Shown piece after piece: positions 159 to 50,465 of a stretch of DNA of 64,000 bases. This DNA is from a virus (taxonomy: Duplodnaviria; Heunggongvirae; Uroviricota; Caudoviricetes), in IMG/VR virus record IMGVR_UViG_3300048573_000051, positions 15,996 to 79,995 of that record; one strand, 5' to 3'. Position 1 is the stretch's first letter; each line of letters opens with the position of its first letter. The position numbers and the translations under genes are program-made. The notes under the pieces were generated by a model, which was not told the origin of the DNA, did not search any database, and saw only the letters and a program-made list of their open reading frames with translations.

Positions 159-629
159 ATGACAAGACGAACAAGAGCCTTCCTTGTTGACAATACACTG
201 GGTAAAATATTCACTGGTGTTAAATCTGTTAGTGAAGCCAGCCCTGACAAGCTGATTGCTGGAACAAAATTATTAGTTAAAAGTTTAAGTGCAAATGCTA
301 GAGTACAAGTAGTGCCTACTAAAAATTTAGGAACTGGTTTAACGGGTATGTACTTATCACCAAGTGGTGCTCTAGTTACACGCATTGACTTATCCGTTTT
401 AACAGTCTGCTCAGGACAAAGTATTATTATCTCTGTACGCAAGGGTCTAACTTACGATCTATCTACCGAGATTTCAACTTACGAGTTACCTGTAGGTTTA
501 AATACAAGAGGTTATATTACTACGATGCAAGTAGATGCTAATGAAAGTTTATATTTTAGTGTCATCCAATCTGGAAGCATTAAAAGAGGTGCTGGTTTAT
601 CAGTACGAGTTAGTTATTACGCAGGATAA
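159..629 (+). CDS. hypothetical virion protein in tail-fibre gene block
   Basis: 156-aa ORF with ATG start and AGGT-type RBS; lies in the same operon as the fibre genes. Confidence 0.4.
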   Translation: MTRRTRAFLVDNTLGKIFTGVKSVSEASPDKLIAGTKLLVKSLSANARVQVVPTKNLGTGLTGMYLSPSGALVTRIDLSVLTVCSGQSIIISVRKGLTYDLSTEISTYELPVGLNTRGYITTMQVDANESLYFSVIQSGSIKRGAGLSVRVSYYAG

Positions 630-634
630 TATAA

Positions 635-841
635 ATGACAGAAGAACAAATCAGAAACTATTTTGGAAACTATTTAATATACGAATTTGATGCACAAGCA
701 GAAGAGTTATCATATCTGTTACCTGATAACAGTATAAATTATATTACTTCAGATTATAAAACGTATTTTATTTCTGACAAAATTGTTCCAGTTAATAGCA
801 GAATTAAGCTATTCGCTGATAATACACAAGGAGTTAAATAA
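635..841 (+). CDS. hypothetical protein
   Basis: 68-aa ORF tightly packed between neighbours; its stop overlaps the next start (ATGA). Confidence 0.35.
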   Translation: MTEEQIRNYFGNYLIYEFDAQAEELSYLLPDNSINYITSDYKTYFISDKIVPVNSRIKLFADNTQGVK

Positions 842-1896
842 TGTACGCAAAATTAGTAGTAGGTCCATCAATTATTAGTGCAGTTCGTGCAATGCGGGAT
901 ATCGGTAGGTTAATTACATCTGCAAATCCGAGCGTTGATTTACTTACAGCGTTTAATAAAACTTCATCCATAATTATTGACCCGACCCCGGCAGGTTGGA
1001 CATATGTAGGTGGTGTAAATGCAGCAGATCAGCCATCCATTGCCGCTGTAGATTCTACGGCAGCTACAACATCCCCTTACGGTTACACTAACGATACGCA
1101 TTACAATCTTGCATTTTCTGCTCCCTGTTTAAATAACCCATCTCGTTTAAAGTATGCACTGCTAAGTCTTGTTTGGAGAGGGACTACAACCAGTGGTTAT
1201 ACTTTTGCCTTAACTGCTGCCCAAAGTGTTACACCTCTTGGTATTGCAACAAATGAAGGTCCACGCCCATTCGCAGCCGCTGCTGAAGGTATTGGTGAAA
1301 CGAACAGTTTAGCAATTTGTACTGCAGCTAACTTTATCCTGCACGTTATTGCTTCACCACGCCATATCACAATTATCGTTGAAGGGTCAATTGCAGGTTT
1401 GAGTGCAGTTTGGGAAGCAACAAATACTGATGTACATGATTTTTATAATAAAGCTTCATTCATACAGTATTCACACGCACAATCTTCAGCAACCGCAAGA
1501 TTTCCCATTATTTCACCTACCGGCTACACTCTCACGCAAAGCCCCGGTTGGATGGCTATCGCCAGTGGTGTTACAAACGTAAACACAGGTACTTATTACG
1601 GAACATACGATATTAGTGAAGCAGGGACTGCTAACTTAGGTAACTTGGCACAAGCAAGTTCTAGTTACCGAAATAACTCTATAAATGCTGCAGGTTCTCC
1701 TAAATATCAAATTGGCCCAGTATATTTCCAAATCGGTGAATTAGGTTATCCTACACAGTTTGTAACAGGTATTGTTCCAATTTACTGGACACGGGGTAAT
1801 ATCGGCAGTACTGGTGACGAGCTTGAGGTGGGTGGTGATTCTTATATGTTTTTTAACTGTGGTTCTGGCTTCGGTGTAATTATGAAAACGGATTAA
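841..1896 (+). CDS. putative tail fibre / receptor-binding protein
   Basis: 351 aa, rich in Ser/Thr/Gly/Ala as in beta-rich fibre proteins; sits upstream of the tail fibre and tail-fibre assembly genes. Confidence 0.4.
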   Translation: MYAKLVVGPSIISAVRAMRDIGRLITSANPSVDLLTAFNKTSSIIIDPTPAGWTYVGGVNAADQPSIAAVDSTAATTSPYGYTNDTHYNLAFSAPCLNNPSRLKYALLSLVWRGTTTSGYTFALTAAQSVTPLGIATNEGPRPFAAAAEGIGETNSLAICTAANFILHVIASPRHITIIVEGSIAGLSAVWEATNTDVHDFYNKASFIQYSHAQSSATARFPIISPTGYTLTQSPGWMAIASGVTNVNTGTYYGTYDISEAGTANLGNLAQASSSYRNNSINAAGSPKYQIGPVYFQIGELGYPTQFVTGIVPIYWTRGNIGSTGDELEVGGDSYMFFNCGSGFGVIMKTD

Positions 1897-2083
1897 ATAT
1901 GTTACTAGCATTTCAGGTTTTATCTAAGGATCAAACAAATTGGCAGAATCTTGAGACAATTAAACAACTCTTGAGTGCCGAGACAATCAAAAGATTAAAA
2001 ATTTCTTATGATCCACTTATTGATCCGGGTGTTAATAATCCACAAGAGACTTACTCGTTCAATTAATATAATAGGAGTGTCAA

Positions 2084-2716
2084 ATGACAGTACTAAATTT
2101 TCCAACATCTCCTACACTTAACCAAATCTACGTTTCATCTGCTGGTCGTAGTTGGAGGTGGGACGGTTTAAGTTGGATTCCTGTAGGTTCTAATATACCG
2201 TGGGATAAAATATCAGATACTCCTACAACCTTAACTGGTTTTGGGATTACAAATGCACAACCTTTGGACGCAGATTTAACCGCGATTGCAAGTTTGACAG
2301 GTACAAACGGACTATTAAGAAAAACAGCAGTAGATACTTGGAGCTTAGATACTAATTCATATGCGACAAGTTCTGGTGCTGTACTTACAGTGCCGACCCT
2401 TACGGGAACCCGTGAGTCTCGTGTGGCGCTGTCTACTGGCGCGATTGACCTGACATCAGCTAACTACTTCACCCGCACGATCTCAGGCGCTTTGACGTTC
2501 TCGGTATTGAACGTGCCAGCGAACGGTACTGCGATCTCGTTCATCTTAGATTTGACGAACGGTGGTAGCGCAGTGATCACTTGGTGGTCAGGTGTGAAGT
2601 GGGCTGGCGGCACTGCGCCAATCCTCACGGCATCTGGTCGCGATGTGCTTGGGTTCTTTACATACGATGGCGGAGTTACTTGGACTGGCCTTGTGCTTGG
2701 AAAGGACGTGAAATGA
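2084..2716 (+). CDS. tail fibre protein
   Basis: N-terminus LNFPTSPTLNQIYVSSAGRSWRWDGLSWIPV matches the conserved phage tail-fibre N-terminal motif; GC-rich gene followed by a fibre-assembly chaperone. Confidence 0.55.
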   Translation: MTVLNFPTSPTLNQIYVSSAGRSWRWDGLSWIPVGSNIPWDKISDTPTTLTGFGITNAQPLDADLTAIASLTGTNGLLRKTAVDTWSLDTNSYATSSGAVLTVPTLTGTRESRVALSTGAIDLTSANYFTRTISGALTFSVLNVPANGTAISFILDLTNGGSAVITWWSGVKWAGGTAPILTASGRDVLGFFTYDGGVTWTGLVLGKDVK

Positions 2717-3354
2717 CAGCGCGTGATATTATCATGGCTGCTGCAGGTGCAAGCACGGCAAAGGTGTCGCCAGTGCGCAAGGGTGTTTATGCAGGTGATC
2801 TTGTAAACGGATCACTCAGCTTTGTTGCAAGCGCAGGTGACATCGTTATTGCTTTTGCGACTCCTGACTCAAAGGAAGGTCTACTTAACTGGGGCGCTGA
2901 TGCTGGCTGGACACGTATTTCAAATAACCCGTCTGAGAGCGTGGCGCTTTACCGAGTGCAGCAAGCAGGAGATCAAAGTACCGTGACTTTCTATTACGGG
3001 TACGGAAATTTCCGTTTGGATTGGGGGAGAGGCGTTGCTGTTGTCTACGGTGGGGCTGCGTATGACACGGCTGCTCAACACGAGTACGTCTACTCCACTC
3101 CGGTCACAGTCACAGGCCCAACGGCAACAGCGGATAACTCTGTGTTGTTAGGTTTCGTGAGCAGGGGTGATACTAGTGGGGATAGCGTTACTTTGGGGTC
3201 AACTGATCTCACGCAGTTAGCCATCTCGACACTACCAAACTGCGCTCAGTATGCAGGGGAAAAACCAGTGAGTGCAGGGGCAACATCCGCCACTTTTACA
3301 GCCACACAGTCAGACTACGTGTGTGCCATTTTGTTGACTCTTAAACCTGCGTAA
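2714..3354 (+). CDS. tail fibre / host specificity protein (start revised to the ATG at 2714)
   Basis: The track ORF 2581..3354 overlaps the upstream gene; the internal ATG at 2714 has an AAGGACG RBS and an ATGA overlap with the preceding stop; Gly/Thr-rich. Confidence 0.4.
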
Positions 3355-3363
3355 GGATTAAAT

Positions 3364-3792
3364 ATGCTCCTGAAACTATCAGACCAATCTCGTGTAAGCG
3401 AACAAGAATTTCGCCGATCAAACCCTGACTCATCGTTTCCAATGGTGTTAACAGACGGCATCATTGCAGAATACGGGTACGCCATTTTGTACGAAACAGA
3501 CAAGCCTGTAGCCCCAACTGGTTATAAGGTTGTAATTGATGGCGTTGAATTTGTTGACTCACAGTGGCGCACTAAATATGTCATTGAGCCACTCAATGAA
3601 TATGAGATTGAGAGACTCGCAATTCAAGTCAAGTCAATCAGGAATTCACTTCTACTCGACTGTGATTGGACTCAACTCCCAGATACCGATGTTGACAAGC
3701 ATGCGTGGGCGACTTACCGCCAAGCGTTGCGTAACCTGACGAAAAACCCAAATTGGCCTTTCATCGTTTGGCCTGAACAGCCGTCAACTTAA
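3364..3792 (+). CDS. tail fibre assembly protein (Tfa-like chaperone)
   Basis: C-terminal region LLLDCDWTQLPDTDVDKHAWATYRQALRNL resembles the conserved Tfa/Caudo_TAP motif; immediately follows the fibre genes. Confidence 0.5.
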   Translation: MLLKLSDQSRVSEQEFRRSNPDSSFPMVLTDGIIAEYGYAILYETDKPVAPTGYKVVIDGVEFVDSQWRTKYVIEPLNEYEIERLAIQVKSIRNSLLLDCDWTQLPDTDVDKHAWATYRQALRNLTKNPNWPFIVWPEQPST

Positions 3793-3846
3793 TTGGGCAA
3801 GTGATTTATAACGCAAACTGTTTGTCGTTACAATTGAAGTTTAATC

Positions 3847-3875
3847 TTGACACATCTCTTTAGAAGTGTTATAAT
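3847..3875 (+). promoter_or_regulatory. perfect consensus sigma70 promoter TTGACA-17-TATAAT
   Basis: TTGACA at 3847-3852, a 17-nt spacer, TATAAT at 3870-3875. Confidence 0.6.
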
Positions 3876-3943
3876 AAATTTGATTGACAAATGATACCTT
3901 AAGTGCGATCAAAAAGATAAAGTACAAGACTAATATAAGAAAA

Positions 3944-3973
3944 GGCTACCTCGTGTAGCCCTTTCTGTTTATT
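3944..3973 (+). terminator. rho-independent terminator
   Basis: GGCTAC-ctcgt-GTAGCC hairpin followed by CTTTCTGTTTATT. Confidence 0.55.
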
Positions 3974-3977
3974 ATAC

Positions 3978-4006
3978 TTGATTTTCTAATAAAATTATGA
4001 TATAAT
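3978..4006 (+). promoter_or_regulatory. sigma70-like promoter for the head gene operon (TTGATT-17-TATAAT, extended -10 TG)
   Basis: TTGATT at 3978-3983, TGATATAAT ending at 4006, 17-nt spacer; the same architecture recurs at 11329 and 20887. Confidence 0.55.
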
Positions 4007-4018
4007 AATGTTTATATT

Positions 4019-4831
4019 GTGCTAAATGGGAAGAATATGGAAACAATTAATAAAGCTAAAAGTTATGCTCCCACAGAAGCAATGCGAAATAATGCACGAA
4101 GAGGTTTAGCACTACGAGAGAAATATAATCGTGGTGGACTAGACGCTTCGCAAGCTAAATCAGAAGGTGTAGGTTCCGGTGTAGCAAGAGCAAGAGATAT
4201 CATTAATGGTAATCTTAGCTTGGCTACAGTCAAACGTATGTACGCTTTCTTTAGCAGACACGAAAAGAATTATAACCCTAAGAAGAAAATGCCTGATGGT
4301 GGACCTACTGCTGGTACTATCGCTTGGTTACTTTGGGGTGGCTCTGCAGGTTTAGCTTTTGCTAGGCGTGTACTGAAACAAGAAGATATTCTTAAAAGTT
4401 ACATCAAAGAGATTACAGACACTGAAGTTAACTCAGAGGATGTTTTACCTAATGTTAAACTTCCAATTACAAAAGCAGTTGACGAAGAATTAAAGCAAGC
4501 TACTTTTATCGTTATGGTTCCTGAAGAAGTTGATGCTCACGGTGATGTAACCAGTGAAGCTGAAGTTCGTAAAGCCTGTCATAACTTTAATAAATACTCT
4601 ATGAAAGCTAATCTATTTCATTTAGTTGAAACAGATACTTTTGAGTTTTGTGAAAGCTACTGCTGTCCTAGCGATTTTGTGCTAGGTGACAAATTTGTAA
4701 AAAAAGGCACTTGGTTAGCAACTATTCAATCCTTAGATGATAATCTTTGGGAATTAATCAAGTCTGGTGAAATCAATGGTTTGAGTATCGGTGCGTTAGC
4801 ATCTGTCGAATCAATCGAAGAGGATGAATAA
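4019..4831 (+). CDS. prohead maturation protease (HK97/S78-like) with N-terminal extension
   Basis: The C-terminal half carries VPEEVDAHGDV and GLSIG motifs like the HK97-family prohead protease; the gene sits directly upstream of scaffold and capsid genes; an alternative start at 4037 is possible. Confidence 0.45.
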   Translation: MLNGKNMETINKAKSYAPTEAMRNNARRGLALREKYNRGGLDASQAKSEGVGSGVARARDIINGNLSLATVKRMYAFFSRHEKNYNPKKKMPDGGPTAGTIAWLLWGGSAGLAFARRVLKQEDILKSYIKEITDTEVNSEDVLPNVKLPITKAVDEELKQATFIVMVPEEVDAHGDVTSEAEVRKACHNFNKYSMKANLFHLVETDTFEFCESYCCPSDFVLGDKFVKKGTWLATIQSLDDNLWELIKSGEINGLSIGALASVESIEEDE

Positions 4832-15200: not shown

Positions 15201-16701
15201 TGAAGGTGGTAAATCAGGTAGTAAAAAACTTCGTGATGTCTTAGTTGCTGAGTTGAAGAAACCTGTCACTGTTATCGTAAATGCCCTTGTCAACGCTGCA
15301 CTAGGTGGTTCATCTGGTGGAGGTGGTTCAGGTTCTTCACTGGTTGGTAATTTCATCAGTAATGCAGCAAGTAAATCCTTGGGTAACATTACAATTGGTG
15401 GTAGTACACTAGCAGCAGCAGGAGAATCTTTTGCTACAGGTTTTATGACTACCGTTGGTGGTGGTTCTGTCGAAGCAGCCTCTGCCGCCTACAGTGCAGC
15501 AGGAATGCAAGGTGTAAGTACAGGTTTATCTGCAGGTGCTGCTGTAGCCAGTGCTATCCCTTATGTAGCTGGTGCTTTACTGGTGGCAAATGCTCTTGGT
15601 CTATTTAAAACTACAAAACAAGTTGGTAGTGGTATTGAAGGTACGTTAGGTTCGGGTGACATTAACAGTTACACTACAATGCGTAAATCTGGTAGTCTCT
15701 TCAGTGGACCAAAATACTGGAGAGAAAACCGTGGTGAGTTCTCTGGTTCTGATGCACTACAAGCTACTTTTGCTGATCTAAAGAATTCAACTAGTATGAT
15801 GGCAGAAGCCATTGGTAAATCTTCAGATGACATTGCAGGTTACACTAAGAAAATTGAAATTAGTTTTGATGGTTTAACTAACGAACAGATTCAAGATAAG
15901 ATTGCTACGACTTTTAAAGATGTAGGTAATGAACTTGCTGCATTGGTACTAGGTGCTGGTGCTACTGCTGAACAGTTGAGTTCTTTATACAATAACGTAA
16001 TGCAACAACGTTATGATCTAGAGGCTCAACTACTTGAGTTACAAGGTGATACTGTTGCACTCCGTGAAAGAGAACGCGCTAAAATCTATGATACCAATAA
16101 AGCGTTGTACGATCAGATCAATGCATTAAAAGACAAGCAAGAAGCTGATGCTGCTGCTGCTGAATCATTGCAGAAACTAACTGCTGCGACTACTACAATC
16201 GTTGATGAAATTAACCGTCTACGTGGTGTTAATACATCTAGTACTGCATTGGAATCTCAATTTGCTATTCTAACTGCACAAGCTCGGTCTGGTGACTTAA
16301 CTGCATTAGCTCAACTACCTGAAGTTACTAAAGGTCTTGAACAAATTGCAGCTTCTAGTGCAGTTAATGCAACTGATATTATCGTTGCCCGTGCAAGACT
16401 AGCGCAATCGTTGCAAGACACATTAGGTTATGTCGGTGCTAACGGTCTGTTAAGTTCTTCAGCTACAACCTCTGTTCCTACGGTATCTTCTGTATCAGCA
16501 ACTGGTGCGCCAACTTCTGTAAATTCATCCTCTAGTAATCAAGAGTTATTATCTGCGTTGGTAACTGAAGTTCAAGGTCTACGTGCTGAAGTTAGAGCCG
16601 ATGTTTCACACAACGCTAAAACAGCTAAGATTCTAGAACGTGCTAACCAAGATGGTGAAACACTTAGTGTATCAGCTACTATTGATGGAGGTGTCGTTTG
16701 A
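12271..16701 (+). CDS. tail tape measure protein
   Basis: 1476 aa, long alpha-helical/coiled-coil regions, Gly-rich putative membrane-interacting segment (residues about 1010-1100), canonical position after the chaperone pair. Confidence 0.85.
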   Translation: MDLAELKFVVLTDDLEKAATRIKELGTEVSKLNKPMQDLTKESAKSNKELSKAEEAAAKAALAQLKLEQAQTKSADSTGKSTSVLERQTMILGYMATGLSKGQASYMATAKAAGALDEELGQLETTLKTQRSLIGGDAFDKSIGLMQKLSNETKVTSEVNKLFNQSLGLTEKQMIELAREKERLIALYNHEKRSLDGLDAEYQQIINKSVELNRLNDARTNSMRQQVKAQNDATKANNYISSEMERLNRLTESNGTITSATNNKQIKFEQALKASGKTAKEQADLLKLFNEQMLSTQKAAGNRQVDYLSRALGPQITDIGVGLATGQAPLTILLQQGGQLRDQFALAGVAGADMGKMLVQASKAMVVSVKDIGLAVGQLVTGAITGTGKAIADSIIAPFTRMSEAKAALKQLDDGLISSLRYARLMEVANGRMIQSFISLSKVAGTVAVVGLVMLSKGLSDVIKEQDALATQLVLTGASLGVNTTAAISYANSLNSVGVTTASALKVIQAMAKEGGFLAGEINTIVVAANNLKFAGVAIEDTVKQFAKLKEKPVEALLEIARATGMVAPEITKLVYELTQQGKTSEAAAVAMKAYADVTIQQKDRLKSELSGFAVFIKSLSSNVGEFFDDVFRSLWRKASPTEAIKKEIADVENTIKMGTGASDTTKASNNAKLLALKEQLKLTQQASDADQTRLSDQARSAKAYEGFIKDSEQFASNEMKRKKELAEAETKYQGLVKSGQISQVQYEQLIANIQDKYKTPKTDSQKESDKLFKSYLTDLAKISNLTNGAIKEQENYTKAQKLALDIFASPAFKKYPEQQRIEIANAIERAHAEELIANELERQQKINEQVVKTRNELVEAGAKQLDASKQTTQALIDESALYDYKLTLVGKEEKEAEKLLALKKIQIEYEKEIARIKSLNLLSGTKEDLELEAYKQFILKRENLDKDANLKAALDFQKQFDNLKTGISDSIVTALFEGGKSGSKKLRDVLVAELKKPVTVIVNALVNAALGGSSGGGGSGSSLVGNFISNAASKSLGNITIGGSTLAAAGESFATGFMTTVGGGSVEAASAAYSAAGMQGVSTGLSAGAAVASAIPYVAGALLVANALGLFKTTKQVGSGIEGTLGSGDINSYTTMRKSGSLFSGPKYWRENRGEFSGSDALQATFADLKNSTSMMAEAIGKSSDDIAGYTKKIEISFDGLTNEQIQDKIATTFKDVGNELAALVLGAGATAEQLSSLYNNVMQQRYDLEAQLLELQGDTVALRERERAKIYDTNKALYDQINALKDKQEADAAAAESLQKLTAATTTIVDEINRLRGVNTSSTALESQFAILTAQARSGDLTALAQLPEVTKGLEQIAASSAVNATDIIVARARLAQSLQDTLGYVGANGLLSSSATTSVPTVSSVSATGAPTSVNSSSSNQELLSALVTEVQGLRAEVRADVSHNAKTAKILERANQDGETLSVSATIDGGVV

Positions 16702-39753: not shown

Positions 39754-40785
39754 TTATTCGTTTTTAAGTAACCATTTGTTGTTAATTGCCTTAAAGCTGC
39801 AATCATGCACAGTGTTACTCTTAAACACCAAACCTTCACGTTCACTGCCATTTAACAAAGACTTACCTTCAGCATGTTCTAATAGAATCTGAATAGTACA
39901 GTCTTTAATATTGGCAGTTTCTCTGATGATAGGCACATGCTTTAACCCAAGCTTTTCACACGCCGCTTTAAGCTGTACAGGTAAGATATATTGTCCTGTG
40001 TGGGTATTGTACATGTCGTAAACGTAGAAGTCAAGCTGTACTTTGTACTGATTTCCTTGGATACCTTCACCGATCATTTCACCTTGAATTGCCATACCCT
40101 TCATAAAATTACGGCGCATGATATCTTCAATATTAAACTTACGTGCTACTTTCCAGAATGAATTTGCTTCGTCTTCTTTCAAGTCTAAGTTACGTGAGCA
40201 TACATGGAATACACCTTCATCATCAAGATAGAATGTGGAAGAGGAGCCATCAAGCTTTTCCGTGATTGACCAAGTATCTTTTTGGTACTCTTCAAACTGT
40301 CGTGTCAAGTTTTGAATACGCTCTTGATCAGTCTTTGGTACTAGCGCAGGGAAATTACCTCGTGCCATACCAGCAAGTTGAGCGTTCATGGGGCGTTCCC
40401 ATTTGATAATACCAAGAATATCACTTACATCTGATCCTTCGAATTCATCAGGAGTTAGCCAATCTTCTTTTTGTACTTTCGTTAGTACATTTAATGGTAG
40501 CAACAAACCTTGTGAAATTTGACCACGTAGTTTTACTGTACGTAGGCGCTCACCCTTTACACCTTCAAATTCACGAGGCTCTTTACCTTTAGATAGGAAT
40601 GGTGCAATATCGTGACCTACCCACGAGTCAATTTCGATATACACGGCAAGTGAATCAACTGCAAATTCACCCTTCTTTACTACAACTTTCCAACCATCGA
40701 CTACAGCGACTTCAATAGCATCTGCACCTTCGATGGGTTCAATTGCTGCAATCTTACGAATAGTTGCTAATTTACGTTCTGTCAT
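39754..40785 (-). CDS. RNA ligase-like nucleotidyltransferase (Rnl5-like: N-terminal OB-type domain plus central KxDG motif)
   Basis: Motif I ITEKLDGSS in mid-protein; N-terminal MTERKLATIRKIAAIEPIEGADAIEVA resembles the N-terminal domain of the DraRnl-type RNA ligase family. Confidence 0.45.
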   Translation of the reverse strand: MTERKLATIRKIAAIEPIEGADAIEVAVVDGWKVVVKKGEFAVDSLAVYIEIDSWVGHDIAPFLSKGKEPREFEGVKGERLRTVKLRGQISQGLLLPLNVLTKVQKEDWLTPDEFEGSDVSDILGIIKWERPMNAQLAGMARGNFPALVPKTDQERIQNLTRQFEEYQKDTWSITEKLDGSSSTFYLDDEGVFHVCSRNLDLKEDEANSFWKVARKFNIEDIMRRNFMKGMAIQGEMIGEGIQGNQYKVQLDFYVYDMYNTHTGQYILPVQLKAACEKLGLKHVPIIRETANIKDCTIQILLEHAEGKSLLNGSEREGLVFKSNTVHDCSFKAINNKWLLKNE

Positions 40786-40796
40786 TTGTTTCTCCT

Positions 40797-41711
40797 TTAC
40801 ATGTCATCTTTATGTCGAATACCAACTAAAACCGGAAATCTAGGTACGGAGTATCCTGTGCCAACGTCAAAGTACTTAACCTTTGCAAGTTGACCCATCA
40901 GTGATTCTCTGCGTTCCCACAAGTCTTCTCGGATAGCATCAGTCATACCACTGCCACAACTGAATGTATCGCCTTTAGAGGTACGTAGAAGCAACGATCC
41001 CATTGTATCTAAGGCTACCATACCGTCTTTAGCTGTAGAGCGTTCTGTGCGGCCTAATTCATTGGTCTTTGCTTCATTGGTGTTGGTGTACTTAGGCTCC
41101 CAACCGATGATTTCAAATTCATTGTCTACAAAGCGTTTGACTTTCTGCAATTCTGGATTCTTAGTTCCAGATCGACCGCACTTATATTTAGCATCGGTAT
41201 CACGAATCATAACACCTTCTGCACCTTGAGCCAGCATTTCAGCTTCAAATTCATCAAGCTGTTCATCGCATGATATGGAATAGTGCGGCAATACTTCTAC
41301 TCGCAATGGTAAACGATCATCACGATCTATCTTAACCAAATGAGCGTAACGCTCTAACCAAGTAGATGTAGGATGAAAGCGGTCAAATACCCAAAAAGTA
41401 AAATCTGGTTCACCCTCAATACGCATAACTCCAGAAGTACTTTGGTTAAATACATCAGGTGCATTCTTATCACCAATGATTAGTTCACCATCTAGACCCT
41501 CCAGTAACCCACCTGTCCACTGGTTCTTAAAATAAGCTTGAATAAACTTATTTGGAATCGATTTAAGACTACGTGAATAAGCTACACCACCAAATACAAT
41601 GCAGCGAATACCGTCAAGCTTTTCAGACATATATCGGTTTGCTGGTTGTGTCTTAACCTTGGTTTGCTCGATTGCAAGTTGTGGCTTAAAGCCCTCTGGA
41701 ATTGTCATCAT
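40797..41711 (-). CDS. ATP-dependent DNA ligase (T7-like, minimal)
   Basis: Motif I SEKLDGIRC near the N-terminus; 304-aa size typical of phage ATP-dependent DNA ligases; replication module. Confidence 0.6.
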   Translation of the reverse strand: MMTIPEGFKPQLAIEQTKVKTQPANRYMSEKLDGIRCIVFGGVAYSRSLKSIPNKFIQAYFKNQWTGGLLEGLDGELIIGDKNAPDVFNQSTSGVMRIEGEPDFTFWVFDRFHPTSTWLERYAHLVKIDRDDRLPLRVEVLPHYSISCDEQLDEFEAEMLAQGAEGVMIRDTDAKYKCGRSGTKNPELQKVKRFVDNEFEIIGWEPKYTNTNEAKTNELGRTERSTAKDGMVALDTMGSLLLRTSKGDTFSCGSGMTDAIREDLWERRESLMGQLAKVKYFDVGTGYSVPRFPVLVGIRHKDDM

Positions 41712-42283
41712 CGTTCTCCATGTTGATCTGTATATTTTTGAAAATAGTCTCGATTTAAAATTTCAATAGCTGTTTTTCGAGCCTCATATGCTTTATTAAA
41801 AGCAACAGCATCTCCGTATTTTACTGCAGAAAACGAAAGGTTCATCTGTTCACCATTAATATTTTTCCAAGTTGCTCTCCAACTTTTATTTTTGGAGTCA
41901 TACGAAACACCTGTAATTCCTGAGCTATTGTTAGAATTTTTACTTCTATTTTGTAAATTTTCTCTGAAAGATTTTACACAAAGATTTTTTAAATTGTTAT
42001 TGTGTGCATTTCTGTCCATATGATCAATAACACAAGATTTATCAAAAATATCAAAATCAGGGTTAAACAGTTTCCAAATAATTCGATGTACAGCATAAGA
42101 TTTATTATCAAATGTAACTCGCCAACTCTGCGGTTTACCTGTTTTTCTAAATATTCTGTGTCCGGCAATATCATTAAAATGAGCAACTGTTTGTCTACCT
42201 TTTTGAGTAAGTTTGTTACATTTCCAACGTAGGCAACTTTCACTTGTCTCATCGTAATAAAAATAATCTTCAAATCTGATCAA
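41708..42283 (-). CDS. HNH-AP2 homing endonuclease
   Basis: VIDHMDRNAHNNNLKNLC HNH core followed by an AP2-like GITGVSYD...WRATW domain; paralogous to 53720..54301. Confidence 0.6.
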   Translation of the reverse strand: MIRFEDYFYYDETSESCLRWKCNKLTQKGRQTVAHFNDIAGHRIFRKTGKPQSWRVTFDNKSYAVHRIIWKLFNPDFDIFDKSCVIDHMDRNAHNNNLKNLCVKSFRENLQNRSKNSNNSSGITGVSYDSKNKSWRATWKNINGEQMNLSFSAVKYGDAVAFNKAYEARKTAIEILNRDYFQKYTDQHGER

Positions 42284-42392: not shown

Positions 42393-42614
42393 TCATGCTT
42401 CGATCTCCTTAACTATTTTTCCGTTCGGTTTGTTCTTATGAACACTAGCTATTCTTAATTTACGTTCAAGCAACTTCTCTGCACTTCTGGCATCAGTAAG
42501 TCCGGTGTAAACGTTCTTCCAGAAAAACCAAACCTTTTGTTGTACGGAAAATGTCATTTCGTACTCACCACTCCAATTTTCAAAACGAGGTACTTCAATA
42601 ATACGAAATTTCAT
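42393..42614 (-). CDS. hypothetical protein
   Basis: 73-aa ORF; ATGA overlap with the upstream gene. Confidence 0.3.
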   Translation of the reverse strand: MKFRIIEVPRFENWSGEYEMTFSVQQKVWFFWKNVYTGLTDARSAEKLLERKLRIASVHKNKPNGKIVKEIEA

Positions 42615-42976
42615 TTAGTTTTCTCCTTGACTTTACTTTTGATAGCATCAAGCTCTTCTGCAAGCTTAAATTCAATAAGCTCTAATGTCTGCTTACCGAT
42701 TGTGCTTTCCATTACTTTTTCACCTGTGTACGCACCAGCCATCATCCACATTGTGCGTTCGCTTGGCAGAAATGCTCCGATTGTACCACAAGCTAGAATT
42801 ACAGCAATAGGCCATGAATAAAATTTACCTCTTTTATGCCAGTAGTCCGCATTGGCTAGTAAATAACCAACGACATATGCAGCGTAAAAAACAATCGTTG
42901 AGCCAACGATAAAACTTAGAAATTTTACAATGCTGGTAATAACACCAGCCAAATAAATTAGAAATACTAAACTCAT
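42611..42976 (-). CDS. membrane protein (3-4 TM)
   Basis: 121 aa, hydrophobic helices throughout. Confidence 0.35.
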   Translation of the reverse strand: MSLVFLIYLAGVITSIVKFLSFIVGSTIVFYAAYVVGYLLANADYWHKRGKFYSWPIAVILACGTIGAFLPSERTMWMMAGAYTGEKVMESTIGKQTLELIEFKLAEELDAIKSKVKEKTK

Positions 42977-43543: not shown

Positions 43544-43730
43544 TCCATGTTTCTACAACTTCAGGGTCATGTGCTGTTGGATCAAAGAATTGTAATGCAT
43601 CTTTGATAGCTTCAGCTTCATTGCACACATCATCAATCACCAGTGTTTCTTCAACTTTAATAGTTACAAAATATCTCATAGTTCCTCCAAACTTTAAAAC
43701 AATAAAAGGGGAGCCGAAGCCCTCCCTGTA

Positions 43731-44531
43731 TTACTTACCGATCGAAACCATTCCCTTGAAATCCATCGGTACAACAATTGTATTTACACGCCCTGCTGCA
43801 ATGCCTTCTGCAATCTTCATTTGTGCTTGCGCTTGCATATAAGCAATAGACTGACCAGAGTTAGAACTTAGTGCAGCCATACGCTCGGATTCTTTCTTAG
43901 CAATATCAACTTCAGTTTGCTTAATCTTTAGTTCATTCTGCGCACGAACATAGTTGGTAGCAGACTGCAAAATTTCAGCATTGGGTAGAATGTTACGCAC
44001 TTGCACAACTGTTAGTGATACAGCGTTGTCCAACTTTTCAGCTTTCAGTTGCTCATTTACAGTATCACGGATTTGCTCTTCAATCTTAGCACGATTGTCT
44101 GCAACCTCAAGTGACTTATAACCACGGATTACTTTATATGCAGCATTATTAGTCAATGTAGACATATAATTGTACATCAAGAAAATATCACCTTTACTTT
44201 CAGCATGAAATGATCGACTCTTAGTTGAGTACAGTTCAGATACAGACGTTGAATTTAGACCGTACACAATTGTAATATCAAAGTCAGCGAGAGCACTATT
44301 ATCTGCAGTCATTGGTGTTTTATTGTCTAGGTTAATTGAGATATCTTTTGTTGGAAATGTCAAAATAGAGCCAACTAAAGTTTGATTCCAAGTTCCCGGT
44401 TGCAGTTCTGTACCTTCAATTTGCTTTGATGCATTGACCCGTACACCGACTTCGCCAGTCTCAATGCGAGTGCAACCCACAGAAGCCAAAGCAACTGCAA
44501 CAGCAAGAATAACACTTTTAATAAATTTCAT
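43731..44531 (-). CDS. SPFH/band-7 (stomatin/prohibitin-like) lipoprotein
   Basis: Start revised to MKFIKSVILAVAVALASVGC (signal peptide with lipobox LASVGC; AGGAG RBS); the body has an SPFH-like beta-rich then long coiled-coil architecture ending in a Gln/Ala-rich helix. Confidence 0.5.
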   Translation of the reverse strand: MKFIKSVILAVAVALASVGCTRIETGEVGVRVNASKQIEGTELQPGTWNQTLVGSILTFPTKDISINLDNKTPMTADNSALADFDITIVYGLNSTSVSELYSTKSRSFHAESKGDIFLMYNYMSTLTNNAAYKVIRGYKSLEVADNRAKIEEQIRDTVNEQLKAEKLDNAVSLTVVQVRNILPNAEILQSATNYVRAQNELKIKQTEVDIAKKESERMAALSSNSGQSIAYMQAQAQMKIAEGIAAGRVNTIVVPMDFKGMVSIGK

Positions 44532-44545
44532 AAATACTCCTTTAA

Positions 44546-44722
44546 TTAAAACAAAATAACAATGCCAGCCAGAATTGACACAGCAATGAATCCGAAGAAT
44601 AGCAAGTATAGCACAGTTTTTACTGCTTTCCACTTTGCAGATGCATCTGATTCTTTAAAAAAGAAAAATACTCCTGCTACGATCAGCGTTACCAATGCTA
44701 GTACAAAAATTAGTTTGATCAT
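44546..44722 (-). CDS. small 2-TM membrane peptide translationally coupled upstream of the SPFH gene
   Basis: 58-codon ORF MIKLIFVLALVTLIVAGVFFFFK...; its ATG overlaps the stop of 44719..44964 (ATGA); it ends 15 nt before the SPFH start; not in the ORF track (under 60 aa). Confidence 0.35.
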   Translation of the reverse strand: MIKLIFVLALVTLIVAGVFFFFKESDASAKWKAVKTVLYLLFFGFIAVSILAGIVILF

Positions 44723-44964
44723 TCGTTAGTCTCCTTAAATAATTTCAGAACTTCCCTTACTGCAGGTACATACATGTCAGCTTTTTCATTCCATGACCAA
44801 CCTTCATTAAGAAAGATATTTTCGATTTGCTCGTCTGTAAGGTCAACAAAGGATTTTAACTCAGCTTTAGCTTTGCCGTATGCTTTACCACCAGCAAATG
44901 CAACATCTAAACAGATTTGAAACTGCTGGATAGTTTTTGGTAAACTTGTTGCTTTAACTTTCAT
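44719..44964 (-). CDS. hypothetical protein
   Basis: 81-aa ORF. Confidence 0.35.
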   Translation of the reverse strand: MKVKATSLPKTIQQFQICLDVAFAGGKAYGKAKAELKSFVDLTDEQIENIFLNEGWSWNEKADMYVPAVREVLKLFKETNE

Positions 44965-46361: not shown

Positions 46362-46540
46362 ATATCCTTTATGTTGTAACTTAAGTTAATAACTTCAGTA
46401 TATAACTGAAGGAAGATTCTGAAGTTGAGTTCCTTGTCGAGTTCCCTGCCGTACCCTCCGTCCCTCGTCCCGTTTTGGATTGTAGCTTAACTTCAATTCT
46501 TGTCAAGTACTTTGTGTAAAATTTATTTGTGCAAAAAGTA

Positions 46541-49574: not shown

Positions 49575-50465
49575 ATGCTGTTAACATACGATCAACAAAT
49601 GAACTTGGTTAATCGTGGTCTAGCTACCATGAAAAATGATGGGAAATACACTACGTTCAAATACCATCGTAGAGCCATGTATGATTATCTCTGGTATGAA
49701 GTACCTGAATTGTTGGAATCGCGTGGACACGTATACCACAATAGCACAAAAGAACTAGTACAAGCTGCTCCACGTAAAAGCTTCAATTATCTTGAACGTG
49801 GCTACTGGAGTGAAGTACCACTAGATACTCCAGTTGAAATGTACAAGAAAATCAATGGTTTTATGGCTTGTGCTACACTACACAATGGTGAATTGATTGT
49901 ATCTACTACAGGTACAACCACAAGTGAATACGCTCAGTGGGCTAAAGATTTAATCGTTCGTGATATGAAACTTTGGGATATTATGCTTGATGATAAAACT
50001 ACAGTTCTATTTGAAGTTGTAGTACCACAAGACCCACACATTGTACAAGAGCGTCAAGGTTTGCACTTACTTGGTGTACGTGAGAAGGATACAGGAGATT
50101 TTTACCCTTTAGGTTTTAATACTCGTTGTTCTTTAGAGCAAGCATTGGAAATCGCAAAGTGCGCCCGTGGTGAAGGTTTTATGGTATATCCTTTAATTGC
50201 TGATGCAGGTAATCCATTTGGATACCACAATTACAATCACTGCTGTAAACTAAAGACTCCATACTACGTTGGCAAGAAAAAGTTGATGCGTATGACAGCA
50301 AAGAACGTTGAATTGATGTACAATAATCTTCCGCACACGATCAGTACGTTACCTGAGATGTGGCATGAGGTTCCTGAACAGATTGTACAGAGCGTTCATA
50401 AAGACACATGGTTAGCTATGAACGATCAACAACGCAGGGTAATTCTTGAAGATTTTAAAGGATAA
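49575..50465 (+). CDS. putative RNA ligase (Rnl2-like nucleotidyltransferase)
   Basis: Candidate motif I KINGF resembling the Rnl2 KIHG; 296 aa; located between the kinase and phosphoesterase genes. Confidence 0.35.
   Translation: MLLTYDQQMNLVNRGLATMKNDGKYTTFKYHRRAMYDYLWYEVPELLESRGHVYHNSTKELVQAAPRKSFNYLERGYWSEVPLDTPVEMYKKINGFMACATLHNGELIVSTTGTTTSEYAQWAKDLIVRDMKLWDIMLDDKTTVLFEVVVPQDPHIVQERQGLHLLGVREKDTGDFYPLGFNTRCSLEQALEIAKCARGEGFMVYPLIADAGNPFGYHNYNHCCKLKTPYYVGKKKLMRMTAKNVELMYNNLPHTISTLPEMWHEVPEQIVQSVHKDTWLAMNDQQRRVILEDFKG

Follow-up and report, generated by a model that had tools for sequence, protein, structure and literature searches.

We analyzed a stretch of 64,000 nucleotides (nt) from a virus of the class Caudoviricetes (IMG/VR record IMGVR_UViG_3300048573_000051, positions 15,996 to 79,995), here called the window, and we focused on two adjacent genes in it. 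One of them encodes an SPFH/Band-7 lipoprotein. The other, directly upstream, is a small open reading frame (ORF) for a protein of 58 amino acids (aa) with two transmembrane (TM) segments, called here the hairpin protein. The pair had been described in an earlier note made from the letters of the sequence. The coordinates and the description given there agree with ours, except for the strand, which is minus, and for one nucleotide. The spacing between the small ORF and the SPFH start had been given as 15 nt and we measured 14 nt. The features of the pair and its upstream border are as follows.

43731..44531, minus strand: SPFH/Band-7 lipoprotein gene, 266 aa, ATG start
44537..44542, minus strand: Shine-Dalgarno sequence AAGGAG of the SPFH gene, 5 nt before the ATG, within the 14-nt intergenic gap
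44546..44722, minus strand: small ORF of the two-TM hairpin protein, 58 aa, with a basic central loop and a C-terminal Leu-Phe
44719..44964, minus strand: upstream ORF, 81 aa, whose TGA shares the ATGA at 44719..44722 with the ATG of the small ORF
44731..44736, minus strand: Shine-Dalgarno sequence AAGGAG of the small ORF, 8 nt before its ATG

A mechanical ORF list runs the SPFH frame out to a GTG at 44633. We placed the start at the ATG at 44531, because homologues are 263-268 aa long and start with MKF or MKK, because this ATG has its own AAGGAG, and because the form starting at the GTG would overlap the small ORF. The overlap of the small ORF with the stop codon of the gene before it was found as described beforehand, the gene in question being the 81-aa ORF. 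The small ORF had also been called translationally coupled to the SPFH gene. This is suggested only, as the ATGA joins the small ORF to its upstream neighbour and both genes of the pair possess a Shine-Dalgarno sequence of their own.

The larger protein matched the Pfam family Band_7 (PF01145, CL0433) over residues 22-214 with 66.5 bits against a gathering cut-off of 23.6 (E 3.9e-18), and in PHROGs it was assigned to phrog_200 'lipoprotein' (E 7e-32). An AlphaFold 2 (AF2) model, built on an alignment of 30 sequences, had a predicted local distance difference test score (pLDDT) of 71. It consisted of strands (27-92), helices (94-164), a further strand (171-182) and a helix of about 60 residues (185-245). 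We compared this model with the PDB using Foldseek, and the top 30 matches were all subunits of SPFH cages (probability 1.0). They included major vault protein and, with E values from 6e-11 to 1e-6, HflK/C-FtsH (9cz2, 7vhq, 7wi3), prohibitin, erlin, stomatin, QmcA-YbbJ and flotillin; the best was HflK/C-FtsH 9cz2 (E 5.8e-11), and QmcA was matched with E 1.8e-7. The C-terminus carries a conserved GKVxTIVVPxDF strand, which in the family profile aligns with the C-terminal strand of QmcA. Searched against the PDB, the same profile matched QmcA, stomatin and prohibitin weakly (E 0.02-0.2), the C-terminal strand included. A single-sequence phmmer search of the PDB returned no SPFH protein and one spurious match to a histone regulator. 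The SPFH fold claimed for this protein was confirmed by the Band_7 match, by the AF2 model and by top structural matches that were SPFH proteins without exception.

Among 1.84 billion cluster representatives phmmer detected 295 relatives of the SPFH protein; judged from these searches, the family is a narrow and distinct subfamily. We found the SPFH clade in roughly 210 of 50,697 phage records. The statement that SPFH genes are uncommon in phages holds for this count, and it fits less well with the size of phrog_200, which is a large PHROG, and with a literature that goes back to 2006. Phage SPFH lipoproteins have been annotated since that year, with unclear function (PMC1524935, PMC10892097, PMC13239085). 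They are present in Kuttervirus CBA120 (orf126), Vi01 and PhiSH19, in Acinetobacter phages Herod and AbTZA1, in Schitoviridae GIB1 and in T4-like phages 44RR, Aeh1 and RB43. The window protein resembles them in its membership of phrog_200, in identity (28-46% by tblastn), in length, in its lipobox and in its early/middle-gene location. It differs from them in belonging to a Burkholderiales-associated clade with a 58-60-aa partner family of its own. Membership of the window protein in the SPFH superfamily and in the annotated phage group 'SPFH/band 7 lipoprotein' is already known.

The N-terminus of the SPFH protein is a lipobox-type signal peptide, as opposed to the TM helix or hairpin that usually anchors SPFH proteins. 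The signal peptide covers residues 1-19 and the lipobox AVAVALASVGC ends at Cys20 (codon 44472..44474). Residues 1-20, MKFIKSVILAVAVALASVGC, match a PROSITE-type lipobox pattern (MKFIKSVILAVAVALASVG, then C), and the position of the Cys, the basic N-region and the uncharged hydrophobic region all fit. Cys20 was invariant in alignments A1 and A2. The pattern match bears out the lipoprotein signal that had been read from LASVGC. Such a signal at the N-terminus implies a periplasmic SPFH domain, and the mature protein is predicted to be exported and lipid-anchored with this domain in the periplasm. Some orthologues carry a plain, uncleaved TM helix at this place, namely those of Giesbergeria/Simplicispira, of locus L082 and of cyanophages.

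With such a topology the protein could be a mimic of HflK/C that assembles around host FtsH, or competes for it, and so alters the turnover of membrane or phage proteins. The HflK/C-FtsH complexes among the best structural matches speak for this, as does the periplasmic orientation, which HflK/C shares (PMC2636767); both would be periplasm-facing SPFH cages on the inner membrane. The family also bears the JGI label 'regulator of protease activity HflC', and this label reflects COG0330 only. We regard this explanation as very unlikely. Prohibitin, erlin and stomatin score equally well, and the window protein belongs to a separate subfamily. HflK and HflC are a pair of paralogues with TM anchors, in contrast to the one SPFH gene with a lipid anchor at the window locus. 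The bacteria that carry the pair in their chromosomes (see below) belong to a class in which HflK/C is near-universal (38 of 40 Betaproteobacteria, PMC2636767), which suggests a different job. Identity with HflK/HflC itself was rejected, because the SPFH protein had no NCBIfam match, HflK and HflC models included, and because the locus holds a single SPFH gene.

We compared the small ORF with its relatives in IMG/VR and obtained ratios of nonsynonymous to synonymous substitutions (dN/dS) of 0.09-0.48 (Nei-Gojobori). By this substitution pattern it is a genuine gene under purifying selection. Its homologues are 54-60 aa long and keep two hydrophobic helices, a basic loop and a terminal Leu-Phe, at identities down to about 20%. 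The final residue is Phe in 27 of 29 hairpin sequences. The loop contains 3-6 Lys or Arg residues and the termini are nearly uncharged. AlphaFold modelled the protein as a helix-turn-helix (H2-24 and H27-57, pLDDT 83). Because of the charge distribution and the positive-inside rule, the loop is probably cytoplasmic and both termini periplasmic. Purine-rich motifs resembling Shine-Dalgarno sequences were present upstream of most homologues. We found no family for the small ORF in Pfam, PHROGs, NCBIfam or PADLOC, and PADLOC gave zero matches for the pair and its two upstream neighbours together. All 47 database relatives of the hairpin protein were labelled 'hypothetical'. With the dN/dS values, the AAGGAG of its own and the conserved topology, the proposed two-TM partner of the SPFH gene proved to be a genuine and tightly linked gene.

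Relatives of the pair were recovered from IMG/VR and their loci were parsed by BLAST-anchored ORF calls. For the count of linkage we used viral contigs with an SPFH protein at least 69% identical to that of the window, which gave 27 evaluable loci. An intact hairpin gene lay directly upstream of the SPFH gene in 17 of the 27. It was separated from it by one intervening ORF in three more, and it was found 1.1 kb away in one. The pair was also present at lower identity, in BUCT-ZZ01 (SPFH 46% identical) and in L037/38 (44%).

BUCT-ZZ01 (L001, ON615601.1, 'Synechococcus phage BUCT-ZZ01') has a recorded Synechococcus host, yet its hairpin and SPFH pair is of the Burkholderiales type. A further small ORF with two TM segments and a basic tail is found directly downstream of its SPFH gene (3802..4041).

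In a scan of bacterial genomes we found the SPFH lipoprotein in the chromosomes of many Burkholderiales. For high-GC bacterial loci greedy ORF calling was unreliable, and for the context we relied on loci of lower GC and on gene calls computed beforehand. In Roseateles, Mitsuaria, Inhella, Parvibium and metagenome-assembled genomes (MAGs) of Burkholderiales, the SPFH protein was 58-63% identical to that of the window and a 60-aa hairpin protein ending in LF or FF was encoded 9-19 nt upstream. A hidden Markov model built from the phage hairpins recovered the bacterial ones, with E values down to 2.8e-6 among 3238 ORFs. Reciprocal look-ups that started from hairpin proteins gave a Band_7 neighbour in both cases (2/2). 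The chromosomal pair was flanked by housekeeping genes, for instance aspS and a NUDIX hydrolase gene in Parvibium and rph-rdgB-hemW in a Burkholderiales MAG, and in Roseateles-type loci its GC content was close to that of the host genome. Since the homologous pair is chromosomal in Burkholderiales, the module appears to be shared with the likely host order of the window phage.

Copies of the Giesbergeria/Simplicispira type had a different character. They were found in a Simplicispira MAG, Giesbergeria anulus, a Burkholderiaceae MAG and G. sinuosa (L049-L052, about 2465..3304) and were 69-70% identical to the phage protein. Their GC content was 0.45-0.46, compared with 0.56-0.58 in the flanks, which are of non-phage type (chemotaxis receptor, GntR regulator). 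A plain TM anchor replaces the lipobox Cys and there is no hairpin gene. In a neighbour-joining tree these copies fell in the phage clade. Because of the low GC relative to the flanks and the grouping in the tree, they look like a transfer from phage to bacterium. As judged from these comparisons, the pair is a module common to Burkholderiales bacteria and their phages, and it has apparently moved more than once. A rule that a TM-anchored SPFH protein has no partner was considered and rejected; it fits Giesbergeria, it fails in cyanophages, and Oxalobacteraceae lipoproteins are partnerless as well.

Arrangements of the same kind were observed in other phages. In Acinetobacter phages of four genome types (T4-like, Schitoviridae XC38, At2 and phiAB441) a two-TM ORF of 84-92 aa directly precedes the SPFH gene. 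In cyanophages S-CREM1 and B23 the ORF is 53-54 aa long and the SPFH protein that follows is TM-anchored. In Ackermannviridae the two-TM ORFs have a very basic loop, overlap or abut the SPFH start and measure 69-72 aa in CBA120 (orf127A) and PhiSH19 and 64 aa in phiEa2809. Their positions in the respective loci are as follows.

PhiSH19 (L115), 1432..1650, minus strand: two-TM ORF
phiEa2809 (L117), 504..698, plus strand: two-TM ORF
CBA120 (L116), 492..701: two-TM ORF, orf127A

These Ackermannviridae ORFs are unannotated in the records of PhiSH19 and phiEa2809 and are called 'hypothetical' only in that of CBA120. In Kuttervirus the next gene upstream matches the Pfam family GP17 'superinfection exclusion'.

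The window, Acinetobacter and cyanophage types of partner, the three that were compared, showed no mutual homology by hhalign or hmmsearch, and the analogous partner families would be either extremely diverged or independently recruited. Small ORFs with at least two TM segments make up 1-2 of about 115 ORFs in the window, or about 1-2%, and about 6% of the genes that flank SPFH genes. With this background of about 1-6% per gene, it is unlikely that the arrangement recurred by chance in 4 of about 6 lineages. We found no paper in the searched literature that mentions a conserved small membrane partner of phage SPFH lipoproteins.

In the window, a leftward unit, in which eight small genes follow a promoter near 46.5 kb, ends with the two genes of the pair. 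The candidate signals at its two ends are as follows.

46479..46506, minus strand: sigma70-like promoter TTGACA-16-TACAAT in a divergent intergenic region, 11/12 match
43697..43726, minus strand: intrinsic-terminator-like RNA hairpin (GGGAGGGC-UUCG-GCUCCCC), then UUUUAUUGUUUU, beginning 4 nt past the SPFH stop

The TTGACA-16-TACAAT site was the best in the scanned region. The totals of promoter-like and terminator-like sites were not above shuffle expectation, and the fold of the terminator-like RNA hairpin did not differ significantly from shuffles (z -0.58). This RNA hairpin is kept 3' of the SPFH gene in close relatives (L012 and L013), with changes in both arms that preserve pairing, and many distant phages have unrelated hairpin and T-run elements at the same place. 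Replication genes (ligases, primase/helicase, polymerase) lie downstream of the pair on the same strand. On the grounds of position, match quality and conservation, these features support the reading of the leftward unit as an early, cassette-like transcription unit that ends with the pair. The early-operon position proposed in the earlier note is in agreement with the promoter, the eight small genes and the RNA hairpin and U-run after the SPFH stop.

The pair resembles SPFH-NfeD operons in organization. In E. coli QmcA-YbbJ (PDB 8z5g), B. subtilis YuaF-FloT and Pyrococcus PH1510-PH1511, a gene encoding a small multi-TM protein is likewise closely linked to the SPFH gene. However, NfeD-type partners are about 150 aa or more and contain an OB-fold, whereas the window partner has 58 aa and no OB-fold. 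QmcA faces the cytoplasm and has a TM anchor, in contrast to the periplasm-facing, lipid-anchored protein predicted here. Its SPFH domain is not periplasmic (PMC13086221), and its cage with YbbJ is given as 26 heterodimers in Tan et al. 2024, as cited in PMC13086221. We searched the window peptide and nine analogous partners for PF01957 (NfeD) and obtained no match even at E up to 1-10. NfeD identity of the partner was rejected, because there is no OB-fold and no PF01957 match and because two TM helices in 58 aa leave no space for more. The suggested relation to NfeD-type partners was therefore not upheld as homology; what the two have in common is a co-oriented gene that adjoins the SPFH gene.

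With moderate confidence we favour a reading in which the lipoprotein forms a dome that, together with its hairpin partner, is located at the inner membrane, is made early and remodels the envelope of the infected cell. This reading draws on sequence, on models and on analogy. On the periplasmic face of the membrane, copies of the SPFH lipoprotein would join by their long helix and C-terminal strand and so build a ring or dome. We infer the assembly because every SPFH protein with a solved full-length structure behaves in this way (HflK/C, QmcA, prohibitin, erlin, stomatin, flotillin). The membrane would most probably be the inner one, which is favoured because close and distant orthologues bear an uncleaved TM anchor instead of the lipobox. 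The hairpin protein would be inserted in the same membrane, with the basic loop in the cytoplasm and the C-terminal Leu-Phe at the periplasmic surface. It may serve as the integral-membrane partner of the dome, either as a bilayer-spanning 'fence' that a lipid-anchored SPFH protein lacks or as an enclosed client. Such a partner would be functionally analogous, and not homologous, to the NfeD partner of stomatin-type SPFH proteins. Made early, the module could fence off or stabilize patches of the envelope of the infected cell. As to the pay-off, we can offer speculation: exclusion of superinfecting phage DNA at entry, or membrane integrity until programmed lysis. Superinfection exclusion, control of lysis timing and protection from abortive infection are the candidate roles that the earlier note had put forward. 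The anatomy and the evolutionary history of the pair are well supported.

Several observations weigh against this reading, and part of them concern the partner. Among the 27 viral loci the hairpin gene was missing in one and disrupted in five (L004/L010, L008/L009 and L011), with the SPFH gene intact. Three independent events account for the five disrupted loci, and the contigs of each event come from different samples. In one event the hairpin is cut at its N-terminus to 42 aa, in another a frameshift splits it into 33 + 25 aa, and in the third a deletion fuses it to the upstream coiled-coil protein. No hairpin was found in L029, in the Herod/AM24 group or in Bacillus phage Kirov. In Oxalobacteraceae (Massilia, Duganella and others, 50-53% identity), and likewise in the viral contigs of the same cluster (L031-36, L041), the lipoprotein occurs without a hairpin. 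Several lineages thus do without the partner. Further, small membrane ORFs are common in early regions of phages, and some of the adjacency could be coincidental. The AF2 model of the SPFH protein is itself of moderate quality (pLDDT 71), and its C-terminus is unmodelled (pLDDT below 50).

The cases of loss and disruption are what would be expected if the two genes were independent neighbours, the hairpin being a separate early membrane protein (Imm-like immunity, holin/antiholin-like or other) that shares only the expression unit. The lack of detectable homology between the window, Acinetobacter and cyanophage partners, and the rate of about 6% per gene for other small two-TM ORFs near SPFH genes, point in the same direction. 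Nevertheless we find this explanation unlikely. It does not account well for a homologous pair whose genes stay together both in bacterial chromosomes, where the flanks are unrelated, and in phages that differ in architecture, or for the same gene order with frequent start/stop overlap in four lineages. The pair also lies outside any recognizable lysis cassette, and the hairpin had no match to Imm_superinfect or holin families of Pfam above noise. In all three disruption events the second helix and the ..VILF end stay in an open frame, just upstream of position 3001 of the respective loci, which hints that the C-terminal half of the hairpin is its functional core.

The remaining objections to an inner-membrane dome concern the sorting of the lipoprotein. 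In the window protein Cys20 is followed by Thr at +2 and Arg at +3. Starting from the lipidated Cys, the residues are CTR in the window and Roseateles, CTI or CKV in Oxalobacteraceae, CS or CT in Acinetobacter phages and CGG or CGV in Ackermannviridae; no lipoprotein member of the family has Asp at +2. According to the Lol rule of E. coli, a lipoprotein without Asp at +2 is sorted to the outer membrane. Under this rule outer-membrane sorting is predicted, which would place the dome away from the inner-membrane hairpin. In addition, an SPFH (HflK/C-like) protein of a Pasteurella multocida prophage has been reported in outer-membrane vesicles and to signal via TLR1/2 (PMC9872710).

A different role would follow if Lol sorted the lipoprotein to the inner leaflet of the outer membrane. 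There it might cap or alter the periplasmic face of a receptor or porin and block superinfection, with the hairpin acting separately or cooperating indirectly. The T5 Llp and Cor lipoproteins are a precedent for a lipoprotein that acts on a receptor or porin to this effect, and the +2 residues, the vesicle protein of Pasteurella and the GP17 match of the Kuttervirus neighbour are in line with it. We consider this placement improbable. A TM anchor that is not cleaved must hold the orthologues that have it in the cytoplasmic membrane, and in the AF2 model the stretch from the lipidated Cys to the first SPFH strand is only about 6 residues long. The sorting rules differ outside Enterobacteria, and the recurrent tight coupling to an inner-membrane hairpin would be left unexplained.

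T4 Imm and Sp and the T5 Llp and T1/phi80 Cor lipoproteins are early membrane exclusion proteins of phages. The window pair is like them in context only, as they too are early products, singly or in pairs, of the type of a small inner-membrane protein with two TM segments, a periplasmic lipoprotein or both. Llp and Cor are small and are not SPFH proteins, and no relation in sequence or fold links the exclusion proteins to the pair. Imm or holin identity of the hairpin was rejected, as the window peptide and its analogues gave no Imm_superinfect or holin match above noise in Pfam or PHROG. A two-component spanin (Rz/Rz1) was rejected too. The hairpin is essentially without a periplasmic domain and the lipoprotein is a 266-aa SPFH protein. 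The neighbours are early genes without an assigned family and replication genes, with no lysis genes among them.

A broader form of the inner-membrane reading is tentative, and we rate it as rather doubtful. In it, the periplasm-facing SPFH proteins of phages and some Proteobacteria, with a lipid or a TM anchor, would be obligate assemblies with a hairpin of roughly 55-90 aa that replaces NfeD, a new class of SPFH partner that annotation has missed through divergence. At least four phage lineages would use them early, walling off patches of the inner membrane against superinfecting DNA or abortive-infection effectors that target the membrane.

Since 2022, structures of SPFH cages (HflK/C, prohibitin, stomatin, flotillin, erlin, QmcA) have appeared in rapid succession. 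The window-type module combines a compact periplasmic SPFH protein, held by a lipid anchor, with a partner of 58 aa; it is genetically approachable and occurs in culturable bacteria, e.g. Roseateles. Analogous pairs exist in tractable systems, such as CBA120 and Vi01 on E. coli and Salmonella, and in Acinetobacter phages. If the hairpin is a true partner, the idea of an SPFH operon partner extends beyond NfeD, and there is a handle on why lytic phages of several families retain an SPFH gene. Three elements appear to be new: the conserved small hairpin partner, the homologous pair in Burkholderiales chromosomes, and the analogous pairs across phage families. As a by-product, some reference genomes turned out to lack an annotation for the small ORF.

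The kinship of the window phage with Limnohabitans and Curvibacter phages makes a freshwater member of the Burkholderiales its probable host. Close sequenced relatives are lacking; the nearest is Limnohabitans phage DC31 (68% primase identity), which has no SPFH gene. A megablast search of the locus against phage records gave zero matches.

The 81-aa ORF upstream of the pair had no PHROG family and no curated Pfam family, and homologues of it were found upstream of the pair in L013 and L014. For the other genes of the leftward unit the PHROG scan returned unknowns only. The window also encodes an ATP-dependent DNA ligase and two RNA-ligase-family proteins (phrog_968; phrog_562 'RNA ligase and tail fiber attachment catalyst'), at 39754..41711 (minus strand) and 49575..50465 (plus strand). 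An HNH endonuclease ORF (phrog_99) at 41708..42283 (minus strand) separates the early cluster of small genes from the block of DNA ligase, RNA ligase and primase genes and is probably a homing endonuclease insertion. The GC content was 0.459 at positions 2001..4000 of the window and 0.36-0.40 over the rest of it.

A 121-aa membrane protein (phrog_3878) is encoded at 42611..42976 on the minus strand, ~750 nt downstream of the pair. A clear homologue occurs downstream of the pair in L013, and BUCT-ZZ01 encodes a similar membrane protein of 157 aa near its pair. The phrog_3878 protein may be a third member of a membrane-protein cluster.

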